NCBI GenBank assembly: GCA_000092065.1
Contig: CP000582.1
DNA length: 64,000 bases
Source of the DNA: Ostreococcus lucimarinus
Taxonomy: Eukaryota
Direction: 5' to 3' (one strand)
The notes below the pieces were generated by a model that did no database searches, was not told the origin of the DNA, and saw only the letters and a program-made list of their open reading frames with translations. The position numbers and the translations under genes are program-made. This document shows, piece after piece, positions 1-52,513 of this stretch. Position 1 is the first letter of the stretch. Each line of letters begins with the position of its first letter.

Positions 1-1130
1 CAAATTTACATCTCTCCATGTGTGTCCCATCTTCTCTGCGGTTGTGCACGCATGTTGCCCTAGTAGTAGATTGTTCAATTTTCTAAAATGAACCAATGGT
101 GATGTCAATAAAGCGTGACTCATGAGGGCAGACTTGATCAGTGAAATCATACCAGATGCACCATCGAGGTGCCCTAAATTGGTATGTAAACTACCAAATC
201 CTATGTTTGAAGTGCGAGATGGGTCTTCAAAACAGAATATACGCTGGTATGCACCGATTTCTATTGCGTCGCCAAGTGGCTCACCTAGTCCAGATGCTTC
301 TACGAATGCAACGTCTGCTGGTAGTATGTTAGCATCAAGCAGTGCACGGTGCACTTTGTACTCAATTGCCGGTCCTCGAAGCGCTCTGAGCGAAGCGCCG
401 CCGCCTTTATGTATACACGAGGACCCCAGGAGCGTGACAAGCATAAATTTGCTACTGGTGGCTTTGTATGTACAGATCATGACTGCACCGACGCCTTCAC
501 CTCGCTCAAATCCGTCCGCTTGAGCATCAAATGTTTTGCATCGACCATCAGCTGGAAACATCTGACGTGCAATATGTAAATCTGATAATTGTCTGTGAAG
601 TATGATATTCGAACTCGCCGCTATGGAGGAGTTAGCATATTCAGGATCTGATGGCACATTCACTTTAGAAGAACTCGTAGCGAGATGAATACAAACTAAT
701 CCTGACGCAGACGCGCAGTCGATAGAGATAGATTCGCCTTGAAACCCAAATGTGTGACTTATTCGATTCGACGCAAAAGCATACGTCGATTCGGACATAC
801 CATGCGCAATATTTGATAGCTTATCGTGGGCAGAGCAGCCTGAATCTGTGAACATCACACGGAACGCTTCGTCCCTTGCCACAGAATCACTGTCATTCGT
901 ACATATACCTACGTATACTGATATTTTTTGCTCGTAAACGCGCGTACTCTTGTCTGAATATGGTACATCGGTAACTTCATGGCACGCTTTCAGCAACTCG
1001 CGCTGTTGCGGTTCAAGAAGTGATCGAACATCAGATCGGCCAATTCCAAAAAAGTTTGAGTCGAAAACGTCAAGCTGTCTTAGGAACGAGCCGTGCCTAC
1101 TATATTCGTGATAGACAAAATCCCGCTTTC
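1..1130 (-). other. Terminal KS (module 14) at the window edge; active-site-deficient, KS0-like
   Basis: The N-terminus IDRWDVERIFS...FDSNFFGIG and the NLGHLDGASGMISLIKSAL motif are normal. The active site reads GESISIDCASASGLV instead of DTACSSSL, with Ser at the Cys position. The HGTGT position reads VEASGLGEPLGDAIE, with the His lost. The C-terminus lies off the window. Confidence 0.6.
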
Positions 1131-28100: not shown

Positions 28101-31100
28101 GATGAATTGTCCCAGAATCGGATTCATTTATGACAATTGAGCCTTTTGCATTTAAGACCGCAGTCGCCGTTGTGATGTTCAACAATCCCGCTTTATTTGC
28201 AAAGTGTAACGAAATATCAGTACAGTTAATGCTCAAACTCAGCTGCAAGTTTCTGATAAATGAATAGTGCATGTGAGTGCTGAAAAGTGTCAGTTTTGTA
28301 TGACCTGTAGCGTGCATGTGCACTACAAAGGGTGAAGTATCGACAGGCATAATACATGGATAATCTAATCCTTTCCCGGGGACTTTTTGAGAATATTGTA
28401 GTCTAATATTCGAGATGTTCTTTCCTAGTGCAGTGGGAGGCCTTGTGAAAACATACTTTCTCAAGAGCGTAGTAGAACCAAATATTACATGCGGTGAAAA
28501 CGACAAAACTTCTGCATCAGGAATGCTATCTGAGTCTCTGTGAACCAGCAGTACACCATCCAGCGAAGCAACGACGTAGTGGAGAAGAAGTCGAAGGTAA
28601 AAGTTTGACGTCACTGCATACACGCGCAGGCGAGAGTGTCTGACTTCCGGAATTAGGTTGAATATGTATTCGCGGTACGTGGTCATATGTTGGTCAATAT
28701 CCAAGTATATGCATACATTGCTCGAAGTAACATATAAAGGTTGGGAAATATAGATCGTCTTCACATTTGTGTTCGTCTGTGCGCTTTCATTCCGTGATTT
28801 TTGGATTGATTGCGACAGTCTAGCTCGCATTAGCCGAGAAGTGTGGGAATGTTGGAGAGAAGTACCTCTTTCCATACGTATGCTGCTTTTTAGAATGAGG
28901 CTCTTCAACAGAGTTTTCCCACTATGTAACTGCTCTTCACACGAAGACCGGCAGGTATGTTCAAGACAGGCAATCAAATTGTCGACTGTGCCTCTGCAAA
29001 ATTTGCTTTCGTCATACATCAGGGTGCCGCTAATGTCGGCATGAGAATCTTGAAGTCCCAACCAGAGCGAAAAAACGGCTTGTTGAAAATGCTCTACTCT
29101 GGACTCCATACATTTTGATCGACGCAGATTGCTGACAAAGCTGAAGCATGTCTCAAACATAGGATTGTTAGCATGAAAGTCACATCCATGTCGAGTGCAA
29201 AGCAAATGGATGATATCGTTGATGGGGACTAGAGGGCATTCACGAGCAGCGTTTATCATGTGGTGCACATTCGCGACAATATGTGAGAAATTGATGTTCA
29301 TGTCGACCACACATCGGCCTGGTACAACGGCAGCGTAACACCCTATGGTTGATTGTTGTGAAAGTGAACTTGCGCATCGTAAATCGAATGAGTTTCCGAG
29401 AGTGATTCTTGCCAGACGTGATGCCTGAACCTGGCGTTCAGTTATGGTGGCGATCACAATTAGCCAGCAAGAAAGCAAAATGGTGCAAGTAGTAGTACCT
29501 AAGATTCTTGCGGTAGACTTCAATAAACGCGTTGCGCTTGCACTGAGTTTGAAAGGAACTCCAGCGCCTCGCAAGATGTCTGGTGAATTTAGGTCAGTCA
29601 TGAAATCATGTCGCAGCTTTGAGGCATTGAAACTACTTCGCTTATTTTCTGTGAGAACGTTCTCCCAGTGTATCAACGCTTTATTTCTCAGTTGTGCACG
29701 ACGATCTTTTTGGTCTATCAGGTGATGAAACCAGGAGGTGTACGAATCGAACGTCCCAGGTCGATCGCATGTAAGTGTGTTTGATCTACACGCATGGGCG
29801 ATGATAGCTAAAGAGAGCGCGTCACCAGCAATGTGGTGCAAAACTACCAGCAATTTTGACTCGCCCAGGCGATACAAACGAAGTGGTGCGTCGTTGAAAA
29901 TATCGAATGGATATGACTTCGCTTCAGCTATGACGATCTCTGAACGTCGGTGAACCGAACCACAATTCTTTCTATCACACCTTAAGATTGGTATGGAAGA
30001 AATTGTCTCTCCTGATTTTATGGATACACTATCATTGGGGGAAAAACGCATTCGTAGAATTGGATGGTTTAGTAACATACAGTTGAAGACCTCAATTATA
30101 TCCTTCTCCATAGAGATGTCCACGATCATTGACATATTGTAAGCACAACTTGACGGATAGAGCTTGAAGTGCAGTACAAATATTTTTTGTTCTTGGCTTG
30201 ATACCAGGACGCTGTCGTCTTTTACGTTTGCATGAGCTTCACTTTGGGAGACTGCAGTCGCGACCTGATTCATTTCGAGTCGTTTTATCAATTCCTCCAT
30301 TGATAAACTTTCAGTCAACAAGCTGGCTGGTATGCGACATCCGAGTTGCTGTTGAAGCCTAGCAAAAAATTCAGTTATCCCTAAGGAATCCATCCCACTC
30401 TCTATGAGAGTTTTGTCTTTCATAAATGAGTGGAAACTAACATCGCGGTAGCATGCGGAGACGATTTCGTACAACGATAGTTGGGCACCGTTGTGATTGA
30501 ACTCAGATGGCACATCCGGTTTCTTATGGTTTGTTTTTCTTTTGCGCAAGTGTGACCTTGATACTGACTGGTGCTCTAAATAGTGGAACTTGGAACTAGA
30601 TGAATTTCGCGCTACCAGCACATCCCAATGGCCGACTTCATTGCGATACCTCTCCATGTAGAAAAGTTCAATGTGTAGGGTAATGCATTTCATCTCACGT
30701 GAACGATGATGTATAAGTGTCTTTGAGTCTTCAAATAGCTTGCTCGGTAGAGCGAGGCCGGATTTTGACAATGTGCGCCCATACAAACTCTGTGATGAAG
30801 GACGGAAACACAATCGCCGTGCTGATTGAGATTGTCTTGTGAAATGTGATGCACATCGAGTCAAACGTGCTTCGAATGCGAGCTGTCCGCAGGCTTCTGC
30901 ACTGTTGAAAGTTCCATCGTGCGTACTTAGAGAGACAGTCCAGACATCTCGTGCGCATGTTTTCGTGCGATGAATACACTTTGTGATCAGGAAACGATCG
31001 TCATTGCCCAGCATATTAAGGGTCTGAAGATAACTCTCGATGTGTGCGCCAATTCCATGCATGTGAGCGTGGATGCACAAAATTATCTTGCAAGTCCCTT

Positions 31101-34100
31101 TCAAGTGTAGAAAATGGCCACGCATGTTTATCATCGGACTTCCACTGTCTTCAGCTTGATTAAATTCTAGTCTATGCCATAAAAATTCCATATCAGTGGT
31201 TCCCAAATGTTTACACCATTCATCTGAAGCAGCCACGATGTGTGCGTTTGTTCCAGAGTATCCAAACGAGCTTATCGATTTTAAGGCTGGGTTTAACGCG
31301 CATCGGCCTCGATTGAATCTCAATACATTCACATACTCCTTTACACTATCAAGAACAATTGGATTCATGTTGCGCAAAGACAATAGAAATCTACTTAAGC
31401 GCATATCATAAAGTGTCATCACTAACCCATGGATTCCTGAAGACGCTTCGCTGTGCCCATGTAGCGTCTTACTTGCCTGGAAGACGACGGGAGAGCGACC
31501 CACACAGTATACTCGTTGAATTGCAGCTATCTCGATGGGATCACCGAGCTGCGTACCTGTGCCATGTAACTCAGACTCATCTACGCCATTTCCTTCGACA
31601 TTAATGCCTGAGTGCGATGCACAGGATTGAATTAGCTCAAATTGAGCGTTGCCGTTCGGTGCCACCAAGGAACTAGTCCTTCCATCTTGGTTTATTTTGC
31701 TTGCTTTGAAGTATCCTACGTTTTCACTGATATCGTTCGATGCAGCGTGATCCACGCGACGTTTTGCAAGAAGCAGGCCTGCATAATTTTCGGCCCGACC
31801 ATATCCGTCGGCTTCGACGTCCATCGCTTTACATCTGCCATCTGATGATAGCATTCCTGCTGCATTGCAGACTATTGAAGTTCTTGGATCAAATATTAAG
31901 TTGACCCCGAAGGCCAGTTGTTCACAATCTCGATAATGATCATCACAAACACATGAAAAGTGCACTGCAACTAACGATGAAGAACACGCGGTATCAATAG
32001 ATATAGATTGTCCAGTAAAGTTGAAAGTGAAAGAAATCCTGCCGGCAGCAACGTTTGACACATTCGTTGCACTTTCATATCCGTTTGCAAGTGTAGACTT
32101 ATCACGCAAGATTCTTGCGTAGTCCGACGACGTGATGCCGACAAATACTGACTTTGCACATCCATTGACGCAATACTTTTTGTCGAGCAACGATGCGGCA
32201 GTGCCAAGCAGAACGCGCTGCTGTGGATCGCAGAGACGAGCTTCCATGCGTGACATATCAAAGGTATTGGCATCAAAATGATATACTTGAGCAATGAATC
32301 CACCAAAACTTGGTGGAAGTGCACCGTCTAGGGTATCAAATTTGAATAAATCTATGATCCAACGCTTCTCCAAACCTTGAATCGCATCAAACAACGGAAT
32401 CTTGTGAGTTACTGTCGACTGGCTGTGAAAAGTCTTAGCGTAGACTCGCACGTCAATACTATGACGTTTATGTTGGGTAGTCAAAGAGCAGGAAGACCTT
32501 TGTATGGAAATTTGATTTTGATGCGATTCGGACAACATACATTGGTTTTGTTGCGACAAAAAACGAATTAAAGATCGGAGTGTCGGATGCTCAAATGCTA
32601 CTAACTTTGGCACATCAATATGAAGCTTCGATGAAAGTGCATCAGCAAGTTCCAAAGCAAAAGTTGAGTCCACGCCGTTGGTCATGACGCTCTCATCCAA
32701 AGAAAATGGTCCATTTCTACATCCCCGTAAATCCGTTAGAACGCGCTGCACCACTGAAGCTACATGTGATTGTACGACATCCACGTGCATAGCTTCCAAA
32801 TAGTTGTCGTCACTCACAATCTGAGTTGATGGGTGTTTTACCCTATCAAGGAGATCGTCAAGTAGATCCCATTGCTGTAGGCTATGTTCTGTTTGGTTCA
32901 GCAGTACTCTAAATTGTGAGTCATATTTCTGCATGTCCAACTTGACTACCAAAACACCAGGAAGCGCACGAGTCAAATGACATTTTGATATTATACTGCA
33001 AAGCTTATTGGGGCAAATCGAGGTCAGGCCCAAGATGGATGAGTCCCATGTTGCATTTAACGCCATACCAACACTCGCAAATGGCCCCAAGCGGATTGAG
33101 ATAATTTCGCTTCCAAAAGAATGAAACCAAAGTGATAGCTCATCAATGTATGCATTTGACGCTGCATACGATGCCGCTCTCCCAAGACCGAAAACAGCGC
33201 TGATTGACGACAGAAATATGTCTATTTGTCGTGAGTGGGACGGAAAAAGCCAAGGCGTATTGTCTTTTTTAGCTTGTACTGAAGTTGCGACTTTTGGTAC
33301 GAAGACTGCCATCATCTGTGCAGGTGTCAGGTGTTTCACTGGAGTCATCTGAAAGACTCCTGCGGAATGTATAACTGACAGTTTTTTATTTTGATCCTTG
33401 CAGAACCGGGATTTAATGGCTGCTAACTCATCTAAATTGCACACACAAGCTCTCGATATTGTCAGATAGTCATCTTCCGTGGAAAATGTTGGATCCACGT
33501 GAAGCACGCGACTTCGCCCTGTGCGGCCAACAATACAAACATTACAATGCGAATGGCGTTTCAAATTATTTATTAAGTGAGCGGTTATGCCATGAGTTCC
33601 ACCATATGTTAAAACATTATGCGAGCAAGTCCATGCGAACTCACGCTGTCGTCCTTCGCGGAGGGTTGAACGTAAACTTACTTGCGCTAATCGCTGTGTG
33701 AAAATTTTACCAGCCTCAACTCTCATCTTGCACGAACTACAACTCAAAAACGTAAACTTTTCAAATACTGGTTTCGGAGCTAAAGCAACTTGCACATGTG
33801 GATACTCCAAATGCAATGCCTGAATTAAGCTCTCCATGGTCCCGAACGTGCAGGCGGCTTCACTTGCAGGACGTGGCTGCGTGGCCAGGTTGAAACAGGT
33901 TGATGAGCATGATCTTGAGACAATGCTTATCAACGGTAAAAACGTGAACATTGATGCGTAAATTGATGCAAATGTGTACGATGAGTCTTCTACTCTTTGA
34001 TAGGGCACTATGTCACACAAGTCCAGGTTAAAGGCACGCTTTCCAATTCGCGAAGCTTTGAAACTACCAAAATTAATACAATCTGTGCCGTCAATTCGTT

Positions 34101-37100
34101 GATGTTTTGCGGCTCCATAAACCCAATTGGCCACGTACTGATGCGTCGGTAATTTAGCACGTCTTCGTATTTGTGATGCACTTTCTTCACACTCTATCAA
34201 GTTATTGGAAGATTGAATTCGAGATTTAGTACGTGTAATTTTCCTATTTGAAACTGTACGATGCGCGCACGTGGTATTCAACAATCTTGAGAACTGAACC
34301 ATGGCGCAAGATATACGCAAAAAATGATGCATACACGACTTTAACAGTTGCTCTTTGACTCCTGTATCGCTAAAAAGTGTGTGTTCCATTGCACGACATG
34401 TAGAAATTGAATTCCGGAAGAACTGACATACGCTGAGGAAGCGCCGGTCGCGTACCTGTGGAGTAACGGTCACGCAGCCTTTACCAGTGTTAACACCATT
34501 CGACCCTACAACTTTAAACACAGAAGTTCTTTCGCAGAGATGTACGACCAAATTATCCTTTACTGCATTATGAGTTGTCAGCACTACTTGTGAAAGCATC
34601 GTCAATCGTTCGTTTGTTGTTATACCAACTACGGAATGTACAGCAAAAAGTAGATCTGACATTCGTGCGATATCATTATCCATATTATTTCTTTGCTTGA
34701 ATGTTAGCCATTGTGACGAATCTAGGTAATAGGCTTTACACTCCACTGTCATGTAATCGTGCAGTAAGTACTTTTCGTCGAGAAGTAGTGGGTTGCCGTC
34801 CATAGGGCGCTTATACAGAGCGCTGTAAACGGTCGCCGATAATATCGCGTGAGCGTTTGTACCTTGAAATGCAAACGAGCTCGTTCCCGTCTTCGCATTT
34901 GCTTTATGCACATGCTGGCACGAAGCAGAAGCAGATCGCGGCACAGCAACGTTTGGCTCTTGAGAGGGATTTATTGACATTGCGTGCCACGCATGTACGT
35001 TGAGTAAGCGCATGTGCATTATGCCAGTGTGTCTTTGCATTTCTACGGCACGTGATGCACTTATGAGCCCCGCCACACCGGCAGCACATTCAGCGTGCCC
35101 CATGTTCGTTTTGATTGCATGCAATCGTAAAGTTTCTGCCTGACCCAAAACAGACATCGCGCCTCCTACTTCTATGGGGTCACCAAGTGGCGTCCCAGTT
35201 CCATGCATTTCAAGGGCCCGCACTTCTAATGGCCGAGTCGAAGCGTTTGCCAGGGCTGATTTGATGACTCTGGTCTGCGATGGTCCATTTGGCGCCGTCA
35301 ACGAGCTCGTTCGACCGTCTTGATTTACTGCGGTCCCACACAGCCACACGCTCTCGCTATTGACATTCGCGGTTGGACTCAGTAATAATGTATCACAGCT
35401 TTCGGCTCGCACGTAACCATCCGCGGCCGCATCGAGCGTCTTGCAGCGGCCATCAGGCGCTAGCATACCAGCGCGTAGAAACATGGCCGTCGTAGTCTCG
35501 GTGAGGATGAGGTTCACGCCACCCGTTACAGTTGAGTCGCACTCACTCTGAAATACAGATGCCACACCGAGATGGACTGCCACAAGGGACGAGGAGCAGG
35601 CAGTGTCGATACTCATCGCCGGTCCTGTGAGATCGAATGTGAAGCATATCCGTCCAGAAGCGACACTGGAAACGCTCGAAGCGGGCACATCTCTGAAATT
35701 GAGTGGGAATATTAGTCGAAGTGCCCCGTACTCATCGGCACTGACACCAATGAAACAGCCTGTTTGACCATCGATTACACCTTGGTCGTCGTAGATGCAG
35801 CCGAAAGTGCACTTGAGTAACGTCCGTTGTCTTGGATCCATTTGCGCAGTTGTGCGTTCATTGAGGTCGAAAATGTGTGCGTCAAAATTGTTTACATTAT
35901 TCATATGAAATGCAAATGGTGGGTTGCCTGATTCAAAGAAAGAATCGAACCGGCTGTCGACGAGCGTCACTTCGTCGTCGTAGGTTGCAGTAGACATATT
36001 GCCGTAGAAAGACGCAAGTGTGATACTTCTATTGCCCAGATTCTCCGCAGAACTGCCTTCCAATACCCGCAAGCTTTGTCGTGATTGAATTGATGATGAA
36101 CTTGAACTTTGTAAACGGTCTGCAAGATGACGAGCTAGTGATTTTACCGTCGGGTAATCAAAACCGAGTGTATGTGGCAGATTGAGAGACGTCTCTACAG
36201 CCAAGCTCATCGCTAACTGCGACATACCGATAGAATCCAGACCTAACGATGTAAGTGGTGTATTTATTGACTTCTCATCTTGATTGATTCCAGTAATAGA
36301 AGACAAATTTCTGAAAATGAGTCCCTCTAGAGATATAAGATCATCGTGAGTTTCATCTTCGGCCCCAGCTTTGGTGGAATAAATGGTAGCGTCATCTTTC
36401 GATGATAATTCGTGTGAATTAAACCCTGAACCCAGATGCGCTTGATTATGTAGTTTTTGCCCTATCACAGAATAACATGGAGCAGAGAAAATATCGCTCG
36501 AAAGTACGTACAGATTTTTCAAGATATCCAAAGCAAGGTGTGGATTTATTGAGGGCATAAAAGCAGTGTTTGCGGAAATTCTACGCGTATCAATAGCCAT
36601 TCCAACTGCACTCCACGCTCCCCATCGAGTACTCACAATGTTCATGCCTGAAGCCTTCTTATGTGCCGACATCATATCAAGTGTTGCATTCGCAGAGGAA
36701 TAGTTGGCTTGTCCTATAGAACCGAAGACGGCGAGGGAAGAAAATACTATTGAAACAAGCATTGCATGGTGTAAGTGCGTTTTAGAACAAGAGAAAGATC
36801 CCGTCTTTGGAGCAAATGTAGACCTAATGGAATGAGGATTTTGTGAAGCATGCAAAGCGTCTTTCGTTACGCCACTCATGTGGACAATTCCAAAGGTGTT
36901 TGTGTCTCCTTCGTATGGTAATACGGTGGTAGAGGCGCACGAGTCATCTTGCCTAAGTTTTAAACTGATTCGCCAATGGTTAAAGAGTTTTGGTTTTGCG
37001 GACTTTCCACTTCTACATGATACACAAATGCCTAGTACATTGTGGTTGTGTGCTAACCAACCAACGTTCATCACCCCAATGCCACCTGTGCCACCTGTAA

Positions 37101-40100
37101 TTCCCCAATACTCGCACCTGTTCGAAATGAAGTGTTCCGATGGTAAGTTGTATCGTAGATGTTTCAGGAACGCAATAATGTTTTGGTTTAGTTCTTCATC
37201 AGATACTGAACACTGAGTGTGGTGATTTGACATTGTGCGAAAGCGTTCGCGTTCAATTCTTTCTTCTGTCTGTGTTCGTACTAGCGAAAGAAGGCAAGAG
37301 TAATGCACGAAGTGCATTTGTGACATCTCTATCCAAATATACTGCGACGAGTTTTGTAGCTGCTCATAGGATGCTGTGCAGAGAATCACATCACCAGCAT
37401 TCAGGCTTGACTTGGACAATTTTGTAGCGACTACCCCTATGAAGGGTATATGTGCAACTTTCGCATTCATTAACATACTTTTGACGCTCGATCCCGATGC
37501 GAATGAACGCTTTATTTCAACGAGAATAGACTGGTTAGAATCGGTTGCCACTTGCATCTTGGGGTACAAGAACTGTTGTTGCACTGATATGCGAAGTTGA
37601 CACGGCATTTTGACCTTCCGAAATGTTGAGTTTGTCACGCGTTTTTGCTTTCCTTCCTCATACATAATGCATCGTAAGACAGCCTCCAAGTGTGAATGTC
37701 CGACACTACTTAGCGCCGGTGATTGAACTTTTACATATTTTGACTGCATGAAGCACATCATGCTGGCAGTCTCCACGCCGAAGAGTGCAGGCCTCGATGG
37801 CCACTCAGGTGCATGGATAGATCTTGAATTTTCGGTTTCGTAGTACACACTGTGAACGAAATCTAGCGCACCGCAAGATTTTCTTTCAGTCGTCATCAAA
37901 CTAGATAAGTGACGCATTCTGATGATTGAAGCAGTGCAACCATGCATGGTCATCATGGCAGAAGTTTTGTTCCCCGCGCTATATAAAATGAACGAAGCAT
38001 GTACTTCTCCTGCAGATGCGGTTTGCATCATGCACTTGGAGTCCATCACATCCATACTATGCGATGCCATGCAGTTTTGTCTTATTGACTCAACAGCTTT
38101 TGGTAGGTATCCTGCAGTTATTGAATAAGTCTGACAGATTTGTAGACATGCATCACAAGTTGCCGACATCGTGAAAGGTGATGGCCGGTGTTGTGAATCA
38201 ACTCTACCTAGTATTTTGCTTTGTTTTTCGCAATGTTTTTTTGTGTATGTATGAACGCGTTGTTGAGTGTGAGTCAGAGACGTCAACGCAAATGAAAATG
38301 TGCAATTAATGGCACTTCCTGCATTCGAAAGTATTCCCGTCCGTTGCCAAATTTTAATTTGTACATTTCCAAAATGTGCTGGTTTTATGAAAACCACATC
38401 TCGAAGCAAGAGTAATGTTTGGTTTTTCGTAATGTTTTTCATACTCTCTCGCAAAATCTGCGCGAGCAAAGTCCCTGGTAGGCATGTTCTGTTCAAAACT
38501 TGATGGTCAGTGAGGAATTGGTTTTCAACATGGTTGAGCAAAAAAACAGTCTCAAGAACTCTATTGGTTACGTGCGCTCTGAATGGTGCCATGATTTGAA
38601 GACCCCAGCAATCAATTGGAGTGTACATGATGGATTTGCACGCAAGTTGTCGTCTGATTTGAAACTCATCATGTGCTACTGATACAATTGCGTGAGCATT
38701 TGTTCCCTGGAAAGCGAACGAGCTTATCGCCTGTGTCCGTGAAAGAGACTGCATGTTTTCCCTCGTAAATAATGCTAATTGAATTTTCGAGTTCAATGAT
38801 AACACGTCACTCACATGTGCATTTAAATGGCGCAAATGAACGATTGCGATAGCGGCTGATTCTGATAAAGAGTGGACGAGATGGGCAAATGAAGCACAGC
38901 CAGATGCCGGCTCAGCATGACCAGACCTTGATTTAACGGCCTGAGCCATCAATGGAGCATGGCTAACCTTCATCGGCGGTCTGAGGGCCTTGAACGTTGA
39001 TGAGACTTCAATCGGATCGCCAAGGATAGTTCCTGTACCGTGCAATTGTATGGCACCTATGTGATCAACTTCGACAGTTGCGGCGTGTGCAGTCGTTGAA
39101 ATCAATATCACTTGAGCGATTCCATTGGGTGCTGTGAGTGAACTCGTTCGTCCGTCTTGAGCGACAGTGCAAGCCATGAGTACACAGCGCTGTGTATGGG
39201 ATTTACAACGACTGAGTATCTGTAATTCGCAACACTCACCTCTGACATACCCATCTGCATGCATATCTAACACTTTACAACGACCTTCTGCAGATAACAT
39301 ACCCGCCAAGTAGCAAAGATACGAATTCCTGGGACTTATGATATGAACGCCTCCACAAAGCATATCATGCACGGCGTCGAATGTGTTCCGACATCCCAAG
39401 GTTTCCCGGCGAGCGATATACATCGCCACTAGCGCTGAAGAACATGCTGTATCCACGCTGACGGCTGGGCCTTGCATATCAAATATATATGCAAGACGAC
39501 CGGATGCTACGCTGATATGTTGACCGGATGCACTATATGCACAGGAATGCTCGCGTGCGCCTAAGGACACTTCGGGATAAGATGAAATACCAAGCGAGAT
39601 ACCGGTGTAAATGCTGAATAGATGGCTATGGAATAGACGTTGAGAATGTTCCAACAGCAGACGCTGCTGTGGGTCCATGCTGATCGCCTCTGCTTTTCCA
39701 ATTCGGAAACCTTGCCAGTCGAACATCACGATGCTTTCAACGAAGCAGCCCACTTTTAAACGTGGGTCGCTTTCTCCAAGTTCATCCGACAAAATGCGCC
39801 GTGCTGTTGGCATGAGGGCAATACTGTCGCAGTTTGCGACGCCCGCTGCCCCATGTGAAGTTCCAGATGACACAGCAAGCACACACTGAAGGTTGGGTTG
39901 CACAAATGGTGCGTTTTGTGGTGAACGACACAGTGCTTCTATCCCGTGCGCTTCGTCACAGCTGTGTTCAACATTTTGCATTAAATATGTGCACAATTTT
40001 GAAATGGTGGGGAAGTCAAATACCAAAGATGGTGCTACTTGCCTGTCGAAGTGTGTCGATATTTTACTGGCTAACTCAATCGCAGATAAAGAATCCAAGC

Positions 40101-43100
40101 CGGCGTCGTGGAGGGGGATATCAGGGTCAACATCGAAACCAATCAATGTGCAAACCATCTTATGAAGTAAACTCAGACAGTCCTGGGTGGTGTGACACCG
40201 CACGCCTGACGTAGTAAACTTTTTCTGACGCTCTAGCGTTGTTTGTTTATCAGCAATTTTCCGAGTGTGCACACTTTGCAAGCCGGTCGTATGTTTCTCA
40301 AGTAGCCAATCAGCCTTCGTCGAGTCACTGGTGAATGCGTTCTGGCATACGACGAGCACTGCGCCACATGATAGAGGTGCATTTTCTATTCTGCGCATGG
40401 TACTTTTCAGCGCAGCGAGGGCAGTCTTTGGGTCCATGAAGCCAACTCCTAGACGCGACATATTTCGTTCTATGTACTTATTACGGATCGCCATTCCGAC
40501 CTTCCCCCAGGCGCCCCATTGAACGCTGCACACAGGGCGACCAGCTGTGTGCTCAAATTGAGCGAGAGTATCCAAGGCAGAATTTGCGCATGAATAATTT
40601 GCCTGTCCTGGTGAACCTATTCGTGCCGTTATGGAAGAAAAGAAAATGGCGCTTAAAAGCGGTTTGCTTGAGTATAGATCAGCGTCAATGGTGAGAACTT
40701 TAGGAGCAAAGACTTCACGAATGCGTGCTGGCGTTTGTCGCAGAAGCAAGGCATCCGATGTACAACCTGCCGCATGCACGAGTCGAATTGAAGAGCACTT
40801 ATCAGTGAGCATGCAGTTATGGTTATGTGTTCGCCAGACATACATGAAACACTCAATGTAAAACGTCCGCTCATGCACGTAAATCTGAGATTTGCCTGAA
40901 CGATTCGGTAACTTGATGCATTGCATCTTCGTACGGATCAGCCTTCCAATGCCCCCGGACCCTCCTATTATCGTAAGTTGCTCTGTTTTTTTACCTTTCT
41001 CGTCACTTAAGCGCAGATATAAGGCTGAAGGTACGGTTTTATCGAAAAATTTGTGTTGATCTACGTATGAGTTTGACGGAACTATATTCTCTTGCACCGC
41101 TACCTTGCAAATTTGATGCAGCTGTTTGGTAGCGTTTGTACAATGAATGAGCTCGATGTGTCGACGCATTAGGCTTGTAAGTAAGGCGATATCGGCTGCA
41201 ACCTGCATCACTGAACATGCTTGTATTTTCCTTGGAACGGGTTCAAAGTCTGCATCTTGACATTCATAGAAAATTGTGATATTCTGGATTTTGCAGGGCG
41301 CTTTGCACGTTAAGCTACTAGCTTTGAACTGGGAATCGAAACCTAAAAGTTTGTCTAAACTCATACTGCAACCTGAGATTGTGTAACTTCCGACTGTTTT
41401 CACCTTGGAAACAGACTCAAAGATGGAGACACCACAACTAGCAAACCAACGCAATCCCTTGATCGCAATCTTCTGTGATACTGCGTCACCGATTACAGCA
41501 TTGACTGCTATTATGAAGGCTGCGGATGTGTTCGAAAGACTAGCTGCATTGTGATGAAGATCATAGGAACTGATAGAATGCGTGACGACATGCACATTTG
41601 AGCGGAGAAGAGGCGCGATTGTGGGCGAATCGAACTGCTTCATACTTGTATCGCACTTCTTGGATGCATGCTTTATCCTTGCACGACAATGCTCACCTTG
41701 TGAAGTTTCCACTTTGATCGCACCGGTTATGGCGCGGACAGAAACTTCTATACGTTGGTGGTACTGCAAAAGTAATGGCCTCACAATCGCAAGATCTTGA
41801 ACCATTGCAGTGTGTAAATCAAATGTACCGCACGCTTGAGCCATGTAATCTATGTACCCAGCCGCTGGAAATAACGGTTTTCCATGGATGCAATGGTCCG
41901 ACAGCGCTGGTGTCGGCTGATGGAGGCGCGAAACAATCGAATTGTGGCACACTTTTATCGACGCACCCGAGCTGTGCACTGGAGATGCAAACCAGCACTG
42001 ATTGCAGGAGAATAGCTTGGATGCGACACTATTGCAAGAACAGCCAGAATTTCGTGCTGTCGCCGATAATATCGCGTGAGCGTTTGTACCTTGAAATGCA
42101 AACGAGCTCGTTCCCGTCTTCGCATTTGCTTTATGCACATGCTGGCACGAAGCAGAAGCAGATCGCGGCACAGCAACGTTTGGCTCTTGAGAGGGATTTA
42201 TTGACATTGCGTGCCACGCATGTACGTTGAGTAAGCGCATGTGCATTATGCCAGTGTGTCTTTGCATTTCTACGGCACGTGATGCACTTATGAGCCCCGC
42301 CATACCGGCAGCACATTCAGCGTGCCCCATGTTCGTTTTGATTGCATGCAATCGTAAAGTTTCTGCCTGACCCAAAACAGACATCGCGCCTCCTACTTCT
42401 ATGGGGTCACCAAGTGGCGTCCCAGTTCCATGCATTTCAAGGGCCCGCACTTCTAATGGCCGAGTCGAAGCGTTTGCCAGGGCTGATTTGATGACTCTGG
42501 TCTGCGATGGTCCATTTGGCGCCGTCAACGAGCTCGTTCGACCGTCTTGATTTACTGCGGTCCCACACAGCCACACGCTCTCGCTATTGACATTCGCGGT
42601 TGGACTCAGTAATAATGTATCACAGCTTTCGGCTCGCACGTAACCATCCGCGGCCGCATCGAGCGTCTTGCAGCGGCCATCAGGCGCTAGCATACCAGCG
42701 CGTAGAAACATGGCCGTCGTAGTCTCGGTGAGGATGAGGTTCACGCCACCCGTTACAGTTGAGTCGCACTCACTCTGAAATACAGATGCCACACCGAGAT
42801 GGACTGCCACAAGGGACGAGGAGCAGGCAGTGTCGATACTCATCGCCGATCCTGTGAGATCGAATGTGAAGCATATCCGTCCAGAAGCGACACTCAACGC
42901 TTGTGATGTAGCATCTAGTGCACTTGCGGGGACACTTGTGGTTGTGCGCATGACCTCACCATACTCCATCCAAGCGATTCCAATAAACACAGAAGTGTGA
43001 GATATTGTGTATTTCGGTAGACATAGCGAGCTCACGCAGTGTAGTAGCAGACGCTGCTGTGGGTCCATGCTGATCGCCTCTGCTTTTCCAATTCGGAAAC

Positions 43101-46100
43101 CTTGCCAGTCGAACATCACGATGCTTTCAACGAAGCAGCCCACTTTTAAACGTGGGTCGCTTTCTCCAAGTTCATCCGACAAAATGCGCCGTGCTGTTGG
43201 CATGAGGGCAATACTGTCGCAGTTTGCGACGCCCGCTGCCCCATGTGAAGTTCCAGATGACACAGCAAGCACACACTGAAGGTTGGGTTGCACAAATGGT
43301 GCGTTTTGTGGTGAACGACACAGTGCTTCTATCCCGTGCGCTTCGTCACAGCTGTGTTCAACATTTTGCATTAAATATGTGCACAATTTTGAAATGGTGG
43401 GGAAGTCAAATACCAAAGATGGTGCTACTTGCCTGTCGAAGTGTGTCGATATTTTACTGGCTAACTCAATCGCAGATAAAGAATCCAAGCCGGCGTCGTG
43501 GAGGGGGATATCAGGGTCAACATCGAAACCAATCAATGTGCAAACCATCTTATGAAGTAAACTCAGACAGTCCTGGGTGGTGTGACACCGCACGCCTGAC
43601 GTAGTAAACTTTTTCTGACGCTCTAGCGTTGTTTGTTTATCAGCAATTTTCCGAGTGTGCACACTTTGCAAGCCGGTCGTATGTTTCTCAAGTAGCCAAT
43701 CAGCCTTCGTCGAGTCACTGGTGAATGCGTTCTGGCATACGACGAGCACTGCGCCACATGATAGAGGTGCATTTTCTATTCTGCGCATGGTACTTTTCAG
43801 CGCAGCGAGGGCAGTCTTTGGGTCCATGAAGCCAACTCCTAGACGCGACATATTTCGTTCTATGTACTTATTACGGATCGCCATTCCGACCTTCCCCCAG
43901 GCGCCCCATTGAACGCTGCACACAGGGCGACCAGCTGTGTGCTCAAATTGAGCGAGAGTATCCAAGGCAGAATTTGCGCATGAATAATTTGCCTGTCCTG
44001 GTGAACCTATTCGTGCCGTTATGGAAGAAAAGAAAATGGCGCTTAAAAGCGGTTTGCTTGAGTATAGATCAGCGTCAATGGTGAGAACTTTAGGAGCAAA
44101 GACTTCACGAATGCGTGCTGGCGTTTGTCGCAGAAGCAAGGCATCCGATGTACAACCTGCCGCATGAATAAAGCATAATGAATCCACAGCGTATCGATTT
44201 ATCTGTATATTAGTGTGTACGTAGGATTGTACAAACGACACAACGCTGTCACTGTACTGATGCTGTCTTAGCATACAGTTTGTTCGTCCAAAGCGACTCA
44301 TTAGTGTATGTGGTGAGCTGTACCTCATTAGGAAAGTACTAGTGAGTTGCCCTGTAGCTCCTGTTCCTCCCATGATGAAGTAAGACCGATTAAGATCGCA
44401 GGAGGCTATGAATTCACTTTTGTTACGATCGAGCTTGATCTTATGTATTTTGCGATTAGAGCACGCCAACTGTTGAGCAAGAGATTCTTTTAGGCACCGG
44501 TGCAATACATGAAATTTTCTCAGACTTTTGTATTGCGTAAAAGCCTGTAGTAGGATGCTAGAGTGTTGAAACGGCGCATCTTCACCCCGTACAACTAGGG
44601 AAACATTTTCTTTGATGCATTCAGTCTCAGCGCATCGGAACAGTGATGCAAGATACTTGATGGAATTCGTCTCACATAGCTCAACTCGACCTTCCATTTG
44701 CAGCACATAGGCGTGCAATACCATCACCGCATGAGCGACTATTTTTTCACGCATCAGTGATATAAATCGCGCGTGTGCTTGAGTGGTACAAGGTCTTAAG
44801 CTTGTGCTTGGTGAAAATCTTGACACGTACTTGACAATATTGATTCCATTGCTCAAATTATTTTTATGTGGATACCCATTTGCCTTTGTGCGTAGCATTT
44901 TGCATTTCACTTTGAATAACACCACGCAGCCAACCAGATGATTGCCAAGACTCTCACCATGGCTGTCCAATTCAATGTTACAGCGCGTACTTATGCGCCG
45001 CACTGACGTGATCTCAGGAGGAGATGTGCTACAAAACTTTATTATGGTCGGCAGCATCGTCACACACTTTGATACTTTCTGTCCATCTATGACTCCCACA
45101 CTGATCTGCAGAGTCGCGTCAATAATTGAGGGCACATGGCCTGATGTGAAGTTTGTTGATGCAGTCTCAACATGAGCGAGTGCAATGTTCAACCGACGCC
45201 CACTGTCGAAGATCGGGCTCAATGTCTGCGAAGAGAAAACATAAAGTGTGTTGTGTCTATCGCACTTCTTGGATGCATGCTTTATCCTTGCACGACAATG
45301 CTCACCTTGTGAAGTTTCCACTTTGATCGCACCGGTTATGGCGCGGACAGAAACTTCTATACGTTGGTGGTACTGCAAAAGTAATGGCCTCACAATCGCA
45401 AGATCTTGAACCATTGCAGTGTGTAAATCAAATGTACCGCACGCTTGAGCCATGTAATCTATGTACCCAGCCGCTGGAAATAACGGTTTTCCATGGATGC
45501 AATGGTCCGACAGCGCTGGTGTCGGCTGATGGAGGCGCGAAACAATCGAATTGTGGCACACTTTTATCGACGCACCCGAGCTGTGCACTGGAGATGCAAA
45601 CCAGCACTGATTGCAGGAGAATAGCTTGGATGCGACACTATTGCAAGAACAGCCAGAATTTCGTGCTGTCGCCGATAATATCGCGTGAGCGTTTGTACCT
45701 TGAAATGCAAACGAGCTCGTTCCCGTCTTCGCATTTGCTTTATGCACATGCTGGCACGAAGCAGAAGCAGATCGCGGCACAGCAACGTTTGGCTCTTGAG
45801 AGGGATTTATTGACATTGCGTGCCACGCATGTACGTTGAGTAAGCGCATGTGCATTATGCCAGTGTGTCTTTGCATTTCTACGGCACGTGATGCACTTAT
45901 GAGCCCCGCCATACCGGCAGCACATTCAGCGTGCCCCATGTTCGTTTTGATTGCATGCAATCGTAAAGTTTCTGCCTGACCCAAAACAGACATCGCGCCT
46001 CCTACTTCTATGGGGTCACCAAGTGGCGTCCCAGTTCCATGCATTTCAAGGGCCCGCACTTCTAATGGCCGAGTCGAAGCGTTTGCCAGGGCTGATTTGA

Positions 46101-49100
46101 TGACTCTGGTCTGCGATGGTCCATTTGGCGCCGTCAACGAGCTCGTTCGACCGTCTTGATTTACTGCGGTCCCACACAGCCACACGCTCTCGCTATTGAC
46201 ATTCGCGGTTGGACTCAGTAATAATGTATCACAGCTTTCGGCTCGCACGTAACCATCCGCGGCCGCATCGAGCGTCTTGCAGCGGCCATCAGGCGCTAGC
46301 ATACCAGCGCGTAGAAACATGGCCGTCGTAGTCTCGGTGAGGATGAGGTTCACGCCACCCGTTACAGTTGAGTCGCACTCACTCTGAAATACAGATGCCA
46401 CACCGAGATGGACTGCCACAAGGGACGAGGAGCAGGCAGTGTCGATACTCATCGCCGATCCTGTGAGATCGAATGTGAAGCATATCCGTCCAGAAGCGAC
46501 ACTCAACGCTTGTGATGTAGCATCTAGTGCACTTGCGGGGACACTTGTGGTTGTGCGCATGACCTCACCATACTCCATCCAAGCGATTCCAATAAACACA
46601 GAAGTGTGAGATATTGTGTATTTCGGTAGACATAGCGAGCTCACGCAGTGTAGTAGCAGACGCTGCTGTGGGTCCATGCTGATCGCCTCTGCTTTTCCAA
46701 TTCGGAAACCTTGCCAGTCGAACATCACGATGCTTTCAACGAAGCAGCCCACTTTTAAACGTGGGTCGCTTTCTCCAAGTTCATCCGACAAAATGCGCCG
46801 TGCTGTTGGCATGAGGGCAATACTGTCGCAGTTTGCGACGCCCGCTGCCCCATGTGAAGTTCCAGATGACACAGCAAGCACACACTGAAGGTTGGGTTGC
46901 ACAAATGGTGCGTTTTGTGGTGAACGACACAGTGCTTCTATCCCGTGCGCTTCGTCACAGCTGTGTTCAACATTTTGCATTAAATATGTGCACAATTTTG
47001 AAATGGTGGGGAAGTCAAATACCAAAGATGGTGCTACTTGCCTGTCGAAGTGTGTCGATATTTTACTGGCTAACTCAATCGCAGATAAAGAATCCAAGCC
47101 GGCGTCGTGGAGGGGGATATCAGGGTCAACATCGAAACCAATCAATGTGCAAACCATCTTATGAAGTAAACTCAGACAGTCCTGGGTGGTGTGACACCGC
47201 ACGCCTGACGTAGTAAACTTTTTCTGACGCTCTAGCGTTGTTTGTTTATCAGCAATTTTCCGAGTGTGCACACTTTGCAAGCCGGTCGTATGTTTCTCAA
47301 GTAGCCAATCAGCCTTCGTCGAGTCACTGGTGAATGCGTTCTGGCATACGACGAGCACTGCGCCACATGATAGAGGTGCATTTTCTATTCTGCGCATGGT
47401 ACTTTTCAGCGCAGCGAGGGCAGTCTTTGGGTCCATGAAGCCAACTCCTAGACGCGACATATTTCGTTCTATGTACTTATTACGGATCGCCATTCCGACC
47501 TTCCCCCAGGCGCCCCATTGAACGCTGCACACAGGGCGACCAGCTGTGTGCTCAAATTGAGCGAGAGTATCCAAGGCAGAATTTGCGCATGAATAATTTG
47601 CCTGTCCTGGTGAACCTATTCGTGCCGTTATGGAAGAAAAGAAAATGGCGCTTAAAAGCGGTTTGCTTGAGTATAGATCAGCGTCAATGGTGAGAACTTT
47701 AGGAGCAAAGACTTCACGAATGCGTGCTGGCGTTTGTCGCAGAAGCAAGGCATCCGATGTACAACCTGCCGCATGAATAAAGCATAATGAATCCACAGCG
47801 TATCGATTTATCTGTATATTAGTGTGTACGTAGGATTGTACAAACGACACAACGCTGTCACTGTACTGATGCTGTCTTAGCATACAGTTTGTTCGTCCAA
47901 AGCGACTCATTAGTGTATGTGGTGAGCTGTACCTCATTAGGAAAGTACTAGTGAGTTGCCCTGTAGCTCCTGTTCCTCCCATGATGAAGTAAGACCGATT
48001 AAGATCGCAGGAGGCTATGAATTCACTTTTGTTACGATCGAGCTTGATCTTATGTATTTTGCGATTAGAGCACGCCAACTGTTGAGCAAGAGATTCTTTC
48101 AGGCACCGGTGCAATACATGAAATTTTCTCAGACTTTTGTATTGCGTAAAAGCCTGTAGTAGGATGCTAGAGTGTTGAAACGGCGCATCTTCACCCCGTA
48201 CAACTAGGGAAACATTTTCTTTGATGCATTCAGTCTCAGCGCATCGGAACAGTGATGCAAGATACTTGATGGAATTCGTCTCACATAGCTCAACTCGACC
48301 TTCCATTTGCAGCACATAGGCGTGCAATACCATCACCGCATGAGCGACTATTTTTTCACGCATCAGTGATATAAATCGCGCGTGTGCTTGAGTGGTACAA
48401 GGTCTTAAGCTTGTGCTTGGTGAAAATCTTGACACGTACTTGACAATATTGATTCCATTGCTCAAATTATTTTTATGTGGATACCCATTTGCCTTTGTGC
48501 GTAGCATTTTGCATTTCACTTTGAATAACACCACGCAGCCAACCAGATGATTGCCAAGACTCTCACCATGGCTGTCCAATTCAATGTTACAGCGCGTACT
48601 TATGCGCCGCACTGACGTGATCTCAGGAGGAGATGTGCTACAAAACTTTATTATGGTCGGCAGCATCGTCACACACTTTGATACTTTCTGTCCATCTATG
48701 ACTCCCACACTGATCTGCAGAGTCGCGTCAATAATTGAGGGCACATGGCCTGATGTGAAGTTTGTTGATGCAGTCTCAACATGAGCGAGTGCAATGTTCA
48801 ACCGACGCCCACTGTCGAAGATCGGGCTCAATGTCTGCGAAGAGAAAACATAAAGTGTGTTGTGTCTATCGCACTTCTTGGATGCATGCTTTATCCTTGC
48901 ACGACAATGCTCACCTTGTGAAGTTTCCACTTTGATCGCACCGGTTATGGCGCGGACAGAAACTTCTATACGTTGGTGGTACTGCAAAAGTAATGGCCTC
49001 ACAATCGCAAGATCTTGAACCATTGCAGTGTGTAAATCAAATGTACCGCACGCTTGAGCCATGTAATCTATGTACCCAGCCGCTGGAAATAACGGTTTTC

Positions 49101-52257: not shown

Positions 52258-52513
52258 GACCGCCTGTTGATAATCGTAGGAAATTTTTTACACAAGTGAC
52301 GCGATATGGTGCGATGCGATCTGGCGCGCATAGTACGTTTCTGTACTTGTGTAGCATAACGATGTGACAACTGTGCTACTTGATAGGAAATACTTCGGAA
52401 GTACGTAAGCGGGCGAAACTTTTATAGTTCGTGTGTGCCTTAGGAAGCATATTGTCTGCAAGGAAATGATTTAATGTGCTCGTTTTACACTATCTATACC
52501 AAGTAAATGCTAT

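Follow-up and report, generated by a model that had tools for sequence, protein, structure and literature searches.

The first modules of OluPKS3, a giant polyketide synthase (PKS) gene of Ostreococcus lucimarinus CCE9901, are best read as the product of very recent ectopic recombination inside that gene, which rebuilt them (probability about 0.7). Recombination at conserved-motif microhomologies, through unequal crossover combined with patch conversion, is probably ongoing. The window, i.e., the whole 64-kb stretch of DNA that was analyzed, comprises the 5' 52 kb of this gene of 14 modules. The gene lies on the minus strand, a correction to an earlier note on this DNA, and the following features are referred to below.

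1..52287, minus strand: 5' part of OluPKS3, an AT-less modular PKS; 17,429 codons without a stop, the frame continuing beyond the start of the window
3584..12263, minus strand: Repeat A, covering modules M11-M13; 2.3 units of 3,702 bp in tandem, with 99.9% identity
34832..35667, minus strand: Tract 1, 836 bp, catalytic core of KS5, codons 5541-5818
35668..39655, minus strand: unique sequence between the tracts, comprising the remainder of KS4, module M4 (DH-like, KR) and the N-terminal ~167 codons of KS5
39656..39717, minus strand: 62-nt segment common to KS1 (50264-50325), KS2, KS3 and KS4, with a single mismatch at 39688
39656..40776, minus strand: Tract 2, 1121 bp, C-terminal half of KR, ACP3 and N-terminus of KS4
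40777..41648, minus strand: M3 patch, 872 bp, standing in for 1,091 bp of the B unit (C-terminal half of DH and N-terminal half of KR)
41649..50325, minus strand: Repeat B, covering M1, M2 and the KS/DH N-terminal part of M3; a 3,609-bp unit (KS-DH-KR-ACP) present 2.4 times in tandem, with 99.9% identity

OluPKS3 is an AT-less (trans-AT type) modular type I PKS by its repeated KS...ACP modules without integrated AT. A frame scan placed the likely start Met at 52257, and domain maps revealed 14 KS domains in this part of the gene, together with KR, DH, ER-like and ACP domains and one C domain. No acyltransferase family was found among the Pfam matches of any of 15 OluPKS3 segments, and no free-standing AT gene within the 64-kb window. 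The domain order agrees with Table S2 of Shelest et al. (2015, BMC Genomics 16:1015, PMC4661987), where the enzyme is called trans-AT by prediction only. The flanking protein was an exact match to XP_001416379.1. The region belongs to the low-GC part of one O. lucimarinus chromosome. An inverted-repeat scan around the neighboring transposon found no terminal repeats. A homologous-protein search with OluPKS3 codons 3400-5900, in an index that seems to be without giant proteins, gave identities no higher than 42% and no match from Mamiellales. The unique M4 segment matched Bathycoccus models among representative proteins; the matches listed included no O. tauri protein and no entry above ~7,900 aa.

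Nucleotide similarity between the modules was all-or-none. When the window was compared with itself by sensitive blastn (word size 11), only snippets of 55–68 nt were shared between modules beyond the repeats and tracts, and the contrast is thus far beyond chance. In the megablast comparison of the window with itself, Tract 1 matched 49277-50112 with one mismatch (35076) and both 42059-42894 and 45668-46503 with two mismatches each (35076 and 35622), i.e., with 99.8–99.9% DNA identity to the cores of KS1-3. Tract 2 matched 43046-44166 and 46655-47775, the same part of M1 and M2, with no mismatch. The earlier note had put the identity of both tracts to Repeat B at about 99.9%, which was right, and its coordinates (34838-35678 and 39657-40786) were off by no more than about 11 nt. 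The same domains in other modules share 34–43% protein identity and no nucleotide similarity. Since the tracts are identical at synonymous sites and the flanks within the same domains share only 20–40% at the protein level, the tracts are recent copies at the DNA level. Selective constraint alone, i.e., purifying selection on protein or RNA keeping ordinary paralogues identical, would suit tracts that cover the functionally important KS core and KR/ACP. It is, however, contradicted by synonymous positions that are fully identical over 836–1121 nt, by the low protein identity of the same domains elsewhere and by identity that runs in Tract 2 also through the poorly conserved KR-ACP and ACP-KS linkers; this explanation is almost certainly wrong.

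Tract 1 is a true transfer between non-adjacent modules. It extends from SVASGR, which precedes the active-site Cys of KS5 by 20 codons, to a point beyond GTNAH, and is flanked by the unique KS5 N-terminus on one side and by the unique post-KS5 linker on the other. The two parts of KS5 disagree in their relationships to KS1-3, with 20–22% protein identity for the N-terminus and 99–100% for the core. KS5 is a two-junction chimera of a unique N-terminus and a B-type catalytic core, and therefore a non-reciprocal (conversion-like) transfer is needed. At 35622, the only site informative on the direction of transfer, KS5 carries the KS1 allele. The sequence between the tracts (35668..39655) has no nucleotide similarity to any other OluPKS3 module.

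The M3 patch, or its flanks, showed the same two-junction geometry as Tract 1. By blastp, the patch has no detectable similarity to B or elsewhere in OluPKS3, and none was found in the Bathycoccus orthologue either. Because it nevertheless keeps the DH and KR motifs DxxxQ (DAVSQ) and GGxGxxG (GGSGGIG), it is an old homologue and not junk.

Module duplications have been reported at the protein level for OluPKS3, OtaPKS1 and MicPKS2 (PMC4661987). In that study, modules 1-3 and 11-13 of the same gene were near-identical in protein (89–100%), KS1-3 and KS5 clustered in the KS tree, and all of this was read as duplication; nucleotide tracts, breakpoints, a chimeric KS5 and the M3 patch do not feature, and neither gene conversion nor recombination is mentioned. 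Plain recent module duplication followed by divergence, without conversion, fits the head-to-tail units with their constant period of 3,609 bp, the duplicated modules 1-3 and the grouping of KS5 with KS1-3. However, it cannot leave 836 bp at 99.9% identity in a KS whose 167 N-terminal codons are at 20–22% and whose downstream module is unrelated, nor a dissimilar 872-bp segment of different length between flanks of M3 that are 100% identical. At least two patch-type replacements would be needed besides. Thus, plain duplication is contradicted for KS5 and the M3 patch and is improbable as an explanation of the whole.

Copying between non-adjacent modules, which the earlier note had proposed for both tracts, does not apply to Tract 2. 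This tract had been assigned to module 4 with its counterpart several kb away, but occupies part of module 3 together with the KS4 N-terminus, at an offset of 3390. The offset equals 3609 - 219, i.e., Tract 2 directly continues the tandem array B as the last part of the third B unit (M3), beyond the unrelated 872-bp patch. The first codon of the tract is the H of HAAG, and its end follows directly on MDPQQR of KS4. M2 and M3 are identical across their shared 2,580 nt, and M1 differs at four sites. Around the 62-nt segment, 39656-39723 and 50264-50331 share 95.6% identity (blastn). Since the segment is common to KS1-KS4, array B comprises three units plus 62 nt, which is what unequal crossover at short homologies would be expected to leave. 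The units lie head-to-tail with a constant period of 3,609 bp and form n units plus a short overlap, allowing for the 219-bp-shorter patch. Tandem amplification via unequal crossover explains much of Tract 2. Repeat A is a second, independent homogenized array in OluPKS3.

At every tract edge, identity dropped to random within one base. Over the 150 nt beyond each edge, ungapped identity was 25–28%, as expected for random sequence and in line with the earlier claim of unrelated flanks. Three junctions lie exactly on codons of conserved motifs (SVASGR, HAAG and DPQQR) and the fourth lies 6 codons after GTNAH; the boundary previously said to fall exactly at DPQQR does so, 39656 following directly after the MDPQQR codons of KS4. 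The exact match available at the junctions amounts to only 5–16 nt, and outside the conserved motifs, modules that are otherwise unrelated have no exact identity of this length; flanking homology sufficient for strand invasion was not found at the junctions. Since the flanks are without nucleotide homology, classical homology-driven gene conversion cannot have made the junctions and could only maintain them. Of the gene conversion or recombination at conserved motifs suggested at the outset, the junctions at motif edges and the non-reciprocal transfer into KS5 thus hold, but classical conversion as the founding event does not. GC3 was 0.51–0.52 in the homogenized KS cores and 0.37–0.45 in unique KS cores; the raised values, which come from just two repeat families, are a possible trace of biased conversion.

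Under the preferred reading of ectopic recombination within the gene, three steps can be proposed. First, tandem amplification would have raised a 3,609-bp KS-DH-KR-ACP unit to three copies (M1-M3); the simplest route to this is unequal crossover at short homologies around the DPQQR-coding part of the KS domains. Second, the 872-bp DH-C/KR-N segment in the third copy would belong to a lineage that is old and unrelated, and may be either a relic of an ancestral module overwritten on both sides or an imported patch. Third, a B-type KS core of 836 bp would have replaced the core of KS5, two modules downstream, in a non-reciprocal, two-junction event such as gene conversion or replicative template switching. 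Candidates for the founding junctions are a microhomology-mediated template switch, an NHEJ-type replacement or a crossover in the motif. Once identical, the copies would be open to ordinary homologous conversion, and this probably maintains their homogeneity.

Near-perfect 3.6-kb repeats are hard to assemble and might be mis-joined, giving false chimeras at repeat edges. Short-read contigs indeed stopped 127–152 nt inside the repeats or collapsed, with L006 and L007 reducing the array to one unit, and are uninformative on copy number. However, every junction between unique and repeated sequence recurred in independent contigs. The junction at 50325 was crossed by many metagenome contigs, both M3-patch junctions (41649 and 40776) by L009, the junctions at 39656 and 35667 by L006 and L007, and the junction at 34832 by L014. 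The contigs reproducing the junctions (L005, L006, L007, L009 and L014) stem from other samples and other assemblers. Thus, the tracts are not an assembly artefact, and the boundaries do not coincide with assembly joins, the circumstance that the earlier note had named as speaking against it. In addition, the frame is open for 52 kb, the copies carry consistent private variants, and the uncollapsed 360-kb contig L005 is colinear over M1-M2 into KS3, with 6 mismatches in 20.6 kb. Mis-assembly is therefore very unlikely. Within the gene, all three differences between L005 and the reference fall on paralogue-variant sites and show the allele of the other copy (chance ~2e-11), a pattern that repeat cross-talk in assembly or polishing could also produce. 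This shuffling of alleles suggests, but does not prove, that domains are being homogenized, as had been claimed.

A KS-core tract with the same edges as Tract 1 was present in the Bathycoccus prasinos orthologue. In strain OZ116911, BpKS1 and BpKS3 have in common 820 bp at 99.5% identity, limited by (V/I)ASGR and GTNCH. This internal repeat was found by direct string comparison and then confirmed on DNA, while self-BLASTP of the model gave the identity match only. The relationships conflict here as in KS5, with 23% identity between the N-termini of BpKS1 and BpKS3 and 99% between their cores. The tract was present in one of the two strains; in the second B. prasinos assembly, the BpKS3 module is absent, 4.8 kb being replaced by 8.5 kb of unrelated sequence. 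The absence of the BpKS3 chimera from the second strain argues for turnover and not for conserved maintenance.

These data bear on whether the KS core is an ancient cassette, present at both KS1-type and KS5-type positions in the common ancestor of Ostreococcus and Bathycoccus and kept identical by continuous concerted evolution, with edges that are frozen limits of homology and flanks that are saturated. Such a cassette would explain the knife-sharp edges without flanking homology and their recurrence in both genera. Consistent with it, the KS cores share 99–100% identity inside each genome, O. lucimarinus or OZ116911, and 52% across the two (best cross-species pairing), and the two genes are colinear (BpKS5 = OluKS10, BpKS6/7 = OluKS11-13, BpKS8 = OluKS14; the module after BpKS3 matches Olu M5 best). 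[quoted passage not shown] On the other hand, the BpKS3 module is missing from the second assembly, and the N-termini of OluKS5 and BpKS3, at 17%, show no orthology signal; the published O. tauri domain string points neither way. An ancient cassette is thus rather unlikely. Recent ectopic recombination remains the preferred reading, and a bolder form of it is put forward tentatively, as a possibility more doubtful than not. Here, the KS core, from xASGR ~20 codons before the active-site Cys to GTNxH, might be a natural recurrent exchange cassette in the giant AT-less PKSs of Mamiellales, where ongoing ectopic recombination in wild haploid populations would move it between non-adjacent modules and then keep the copies identical.

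In bacteria, it is accepted that polyketide diversity is driven by inter-module recombination and gene conversion, which now also guide PKS engineering. The giant modular mycolactone PKS of Mycobacterium ulcerans, which is bacterial, cis-AT and plasmid-borne, has domains with ~97–100% nucleotide identity between modules, attributed to very recent duplication and recombination. There, identity extends over almost all domains, whereas in OluPKS3 just two arrays and one dispersed core are homogenized, with saturated divergence elsewhere.

In bacterial assembly-line PKSs, inter-module gene conversion has been described for GRINS (Nivina et al. 2021, PMC8256042), and in the cinnamomycin cluster 100%-identical KS-C/AT regions are bounded at GTNAH (PMC12391348). 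As in these cases, near-identical DNA of more than 500 bp occurs here in non-adjacent modules, with edges at motifs such as GTNAH, and part of a module is recoded. Unlike them, OluPKS3 is eukaryotic and AT-less, and the tract is the KS catalytic core, not an AT or a reductive loop; neither trans-AT PKSs nor KS domains (11%) commonly carry GRINS (PMC8256042). GRINS are defined by DNA identity above 80% over more than 500 bp to another region of the same PKS cluster and by both skews above 0.15 in 150-nt windows (PMC8256042). With 836 bp and 1121 bp at 99.8–100% identity, the tracts are sufficiently long and similar. Their mean absolute GC/TA skews were 0.084/0.120 (Tract 1) and 0.097/0.092 (Tract 2), compared with 0.075/0.093 for Repeat B and 0.091/0.091 for the whole OluPKS3 gene. 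With skews of 0.08–0.12, which are below 0.15 and do not differ from those elsewhere in the gene, the tracts are not GRINS.

In Mamiellales, the low-GC outlier region (BOC1) contains giant PKS genes that are structurally variable (bioRxiv 10.1101/2025.04.21.649811). Module number and arrangement differ between species, strains and even laboratory cultures, which the difference between the Bathycoccus strains fits. The variation described there is at the scale of domains and modules, with nearby MULE transposons; motif-edge breakpoints are not reported, and neither gene conversion nor tandem repeats are mentioned.

For eukaryotic giant PKSs, prior reports were limited to 'module duplication' and coarse structural variation. 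The OluPKS3 locus provides base-resolution breakpoints in an algal trans-AT-type synthase, and with them a process known from bacteria in a eukaryote. Judged by its sequence, KS5 appears to be a functional chimeric KS, split ~20 codons before the active-site cysteine. A segment of ACP and KS N-terminus travels with the upstream module and ends at DPQQR, and the KS-core cassette also occurs in a second genus. Provided that such junctions are tolerated in vivo, they would be candidate fusion points for swaps of KS cores or modules. OluPKS3 sits in a poorly understood low-GC outlier chromosome region of picoalgae, and O. lucimarinus, being haploid, small in genome and abundant in ocean metagenomes, makes concerted evolution and copy-number change tractable. 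If the KS core is indeed an exchange cassette, these algae would reprogram their assembly line in real time and supply KS-core fusion points validated by evolution.

On the minus strand of the window (G+C content of 47%), a frame scan yielded a stop-free frame of 17,429 codons (1-52287) that continues beyond the window start. Pfam and within-gene profile scans identified 14 ketosynthase (KS) domains in this frame together with DH, KR and ACP domains, one ER-like domain and one condensation domain, and none of its segments matched an acyltransferase family. The domain string agrees with that of 'OluPKS3' (JGI protein 30000), a 14-module predicted trans-AT PKS (Shelest et al. 2015, PMC4661987). 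The adjoining 914-aa RPE65/GST protein (52514-55258, minus strand) matched XP_001416379.1 of Ostreococcus lucimarinus CCE9901 exactly. Modules are numbered in the gene direction, i.e., from high to low window coordinates. Modules M1, M2 and M3 are each composed of KS-DH-KR-ACP, M4 of KS-(DH-like)-KR, M5 of KS-KR-ACP and M6 of KS-ACP-C. They are preceded by about 560 codons of unknown function that include a loading ACP. These first codons (50608-52287, minus strand) gave no Pfam match at E≤0.001; only a weak ACP-like match was seen at codons 534-579, and the N-terminal sequence of the orthologue in Bathycoccus was weakly similar (27.7% over 191 aa).

The condensation (NRPS C) domain of M6 is located at 28933-30222 (minus strand). 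No adenylation domain was found anywhere in the window, as was likewise commented on by Shelest et al. (PMC4661987). KS14 (73-1083, minus strand) carries DCASASG where DTACSSS is expected and, according to the literature, SGLGE instead of HGTGT; it is presumably a non-elongating terminal KS. KS14 is conserved in the Bathycoccus orthologue (BpKS8, 39% core identity).

Comparison of the window with itself by megablast revealed two tandem families and two further near-identical tracts.

Repeat arrays and copied tracts in OluPKS3
3584-12263, minus strand: repeat A, modules M11-M13, period 3,702 bp, 99.9% identity (megablast)
41649-50325, minus strand: repeat B, period 3,609 bp (megablast)
34832-35667: tract 1, 836 bp, one mismatch to the KS1 copy and two to the KS2 and KS3 copies
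39656-40776: tract 2, 1121 bp, identical to the copies in M1 and M2
40777-41648: M3 patch, 872 bp, between tract 2 and repeat B, which ends at 41649

Beyond each tract edge, identity was 25-28% in ungapped register, and the switch from identity to random sequence takes one base. Thus, near-identical tracts with unrelated flanks, as described in the earlier note, are real, with coordinates moving by at most 11 nt. For other module pairs in the window, blastn (word size 11) detected no nucleotide similarity beyond snippets of 55-68 nt. Hence, in DNA, two modules share either at least 99.8% identity or no recognisable similarity, and the unique KS cores share 34-43% mutual identity in protein. 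Repeat A starts in the KS11 N-terminus (at ISSVSSPGQYQ) and ends 32 codons past GTNAH of KS13; its tandem counterpart in a Bathycoccus prasinos locus (L015, 31334-34008 = 35234-37911) also ends soon after the KS.

Tract 1 comprises codons 5541-5818. Its first codon is the S of SVASGRICFTFDLTG, 20 codons ahead of the active-site motif DTACSSS, and it ends 6 codons past GTNAH (after GTNAHAILSAT), so that the entire KS5 catalytic core lies within it. The first ~167 codons of KS5 share 20-22% identity with KS1-3, i.e., background level, as compared to 99-100% for the core. KS5 is a two-junction chimera. It carries the M1 allele at the sole informative site, 35622, and a private change at 35076. 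Position 35622 (the P codon in DLTGPAMS) is the only site splitting the KS1/KS5 from the KS2/KS3 core versions; the variant is non-synonymous (Pro vs. Ser) and lies 6 residues ahead of DTACSSS and 8 ahead of the catalytic Cys.

Tract 2 (codons 3838-4210) begins in KR3, at the H of HAAGCTSDALL, takes in ACP3 and the linker between ACP and KS, and stops directly past MDPQQR of KS4, so one boundary indeed falls exactly at the DPQQR-coding motif. Its offset to the M2 copy is 3,390 bp, i.e., 3,609 minus 219, and the 872-bp M3 patch takes the place of 1,091 bp in the B unit. This geometry makes M3 a third B unit whose middle is foreign; tract 2 is the tail of that unit, and not a copy transferred between non-adjacent modules as had been claimed. 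The patch codes for the C-terminal half of DH and the N-terminal half of KR; blastp matched it neither to the B version nor to any other part of the gene. It retains DAVSQ (DxxxQ) and GGSGGIG (GGxGxxG), the B counterparts being DATLQ and GGTGATG; these motifs point to an old, functional-looking homologue rather than junk. Allowing for the patch, array B consists of three units plus 62 nt, and 39656-39717 (KS4) differs from 50264-50325 (KS1) by one mismatch. Such an arrangement is the expected geometry of unequal crossover between short homologies. No difference between M2 and M3 was found over 2,580 shared nt, and M1 differed from M2/M3 at four sites.

Three junctions lie exactly where the codons of a conserved motif begin or end (SVASGR, HAAG and DPQQR-L), and a fourth lies 6 codons past GTNAH. 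The remaining two are located 14 codons ahead of DPQQR in KS1 and within DH. In unrelated KS and KR domains, exact identity to B at these motifs amounts to only 5-16 nt; thus, the founding events needed at most microhomology, and classical homologous conversion was rejected for them. Candidate founding events would be crossover in the motif, template switching, or end-joining with selection for an in-register product. Afterwards, unequal crossover and homologous conversion of the ordinary kind could readily proceed on 0.8-3.6 kb of identity. Genetic repeats of intense nucleotide skews (GRINS) were also rejected, since the mean absolute GC and TA skews of the tracts (0.08-0.12) were below the criterion of 0.15 and equalled the gene average. 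The earlier interpretation was borne out in part: recombination at conserved motifs is correct, with exchange between non-adjacent modules applying to tract 1 only and tandem amplification replacing it for tract 2, while homology-driven founding junctions had to be given up.

The flanking protein XP_001416379.1 is present on many environmental metagenome contigs, and the junctions are spanned as follows.

Junctions spanned by environmental contigs
50325, KS1 unique to B: many short-read contigs, which stop ~20-130 codons into repeat B
41649, B to M3 patch, and 40776, M3 patch to tract 2: contig L009
39656, tract 2 to KS4, and 35667, KS5 N-terminus to tract 1: contigs L006 and L007, ending 152 nt into tract 1
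34832, tract 1 to post-KS5: contig L014, beginning 127 nt inside tract 1 and picked up by a 48-nt junction probe

In addition, the 360-kb contig L005 is colinear with the window from 63135 to 42514 with six mismatches and spans M1, M2 and the start of M3. The tracts are not an assembly artefact. In L006 and L007 the array is collapsed to one B unit, so the wild copy number is not readable from them. In L005 (JGI 3300047157, Ga0494219_00130), the gene call for the giant PKS starts at the Met corresponding to window position 51393 and is 16,671 aa long. The reference frame from this Met exceeds 17,131 codons, continuing past the window start, and is longer than the L005 gene call; the L005 gene may have one repeat unit (A or B) fewer or a frame break.

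A Tc5/pogo-type DDE transposase ORF of 877 aa (HTH_Tnp_Tc5 and DDE_1; 60108-62741, plus strand) lies within surroundings of 59.9-63.1 kb, around which no terminal inverted repeats were found. Most environmental contigs (L005, L006, L008, L009, L011-L013) contain the segment, whereas it is absent or rearranged in L007 and L010; this looks like an insertion polymorphism beside the PKS.

Inside the gene, all three differences between L005 and the reference (50067 G>A, 49124 A>G and 44491 T>C) fall on paralogue-variant sites, and each carries the allele of the other copy. The probability of this occurring by chance is about 2e-11. The alleles reflect either real inter-copy conversion in wild haplotypes or repeat cross-talk in assembly/polishing. 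GC3 of the homogenised KS cores was 0.51 (B) and 0.52 (A), as compared to 0.37-0.45 in seven unique cores, and that of whole repeated modules was likewise 3-6 points higher. The higher GC3 of the repeated cores could stem from GC-biased gene conversion, although it concerns two families only.

When the unique M4 segment served as query in a full HMMER scan, two Bathycoccus prasinos gene models were recovered, and both loci were retrieved. The PKS of L015 (GCA_964199525.1) has eight KS domains and is colinear with OluPKS3. The BpKS1/3 core and the B core form the best cross-species pair (52% aa), while BpKS5 corresponds to OluKS10, the tandem repeat BpKS6/7 to OluKS11-13, and BpKS8 to OluKS14. 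Tract 2 is the best match of the KR-ACP following BpKS1, and M5 that of the module following BpKS3. In L015, 10314-11133 and 18101-18920 (820 bp, 7.8 kb apart) are 99.5% identical from (V/I)ASGR to GTNCH, with edges at most 1-6 codons from those in O. lucimarinus; the N-termini of BpKS1 and BpKS3 share 23% identity. Thus, in both genera, the first ancestral module shares one KS-core cassette with the third. This may be an old state maintained by concerted evolution, or the shared core may have originated independently in each lineage. The second locus, L016, lacks the third module: in place of 4.8 kb (L015 17021-21818), it has an unrelated sequence of 8.5 kb (L016 16611-25069), which encodes two different KS domains and also contains an AMP-binding motif (FTSGTSGNSKG). 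The flanks are 99.9% identical, and the left junction lies just ahead of the KR motif GQSNYAAAN. Since L016 is without the chimeric-KS3 module, the Bathycoccus chimera is strain-polymorphic, which supports recurrent, rapid remodelling.

At the protein level, modules 1-3 and 11-13 were reported to be near-identical and KS5 to group with KS1-3; this was interpreted as duplication, and recombination was not discussed (Shelest et al. 2015, PMC4661987). A 2025/26 preprint (bioRxiv 10.1101/2025.04.21.649811) described large structural variation of giant PKSs between and within Mamiellales species, with conversion unmentioned. Bacterial PKSs offer well-documented cases of inter-module gene conversion (PMC8256042, PMC12391348, PMC1592344), including 100%-identical tracts with a GTNAH boundary. 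The process in OluPKS3 is similar; the synthase here is eukaryotic and AT-less, and the units exchanged are a KS-core cassette and an 'ACP + KS N-terminus' segment bounded by DPQQR. The tracts thus represent a well-resolved fresh case of an already known process. That Mamiellales PKSs possess a KS-core exchange cassette which is conserved and actively homogenised is a tentative reading, to which we assign a probability of roughly 0.3.
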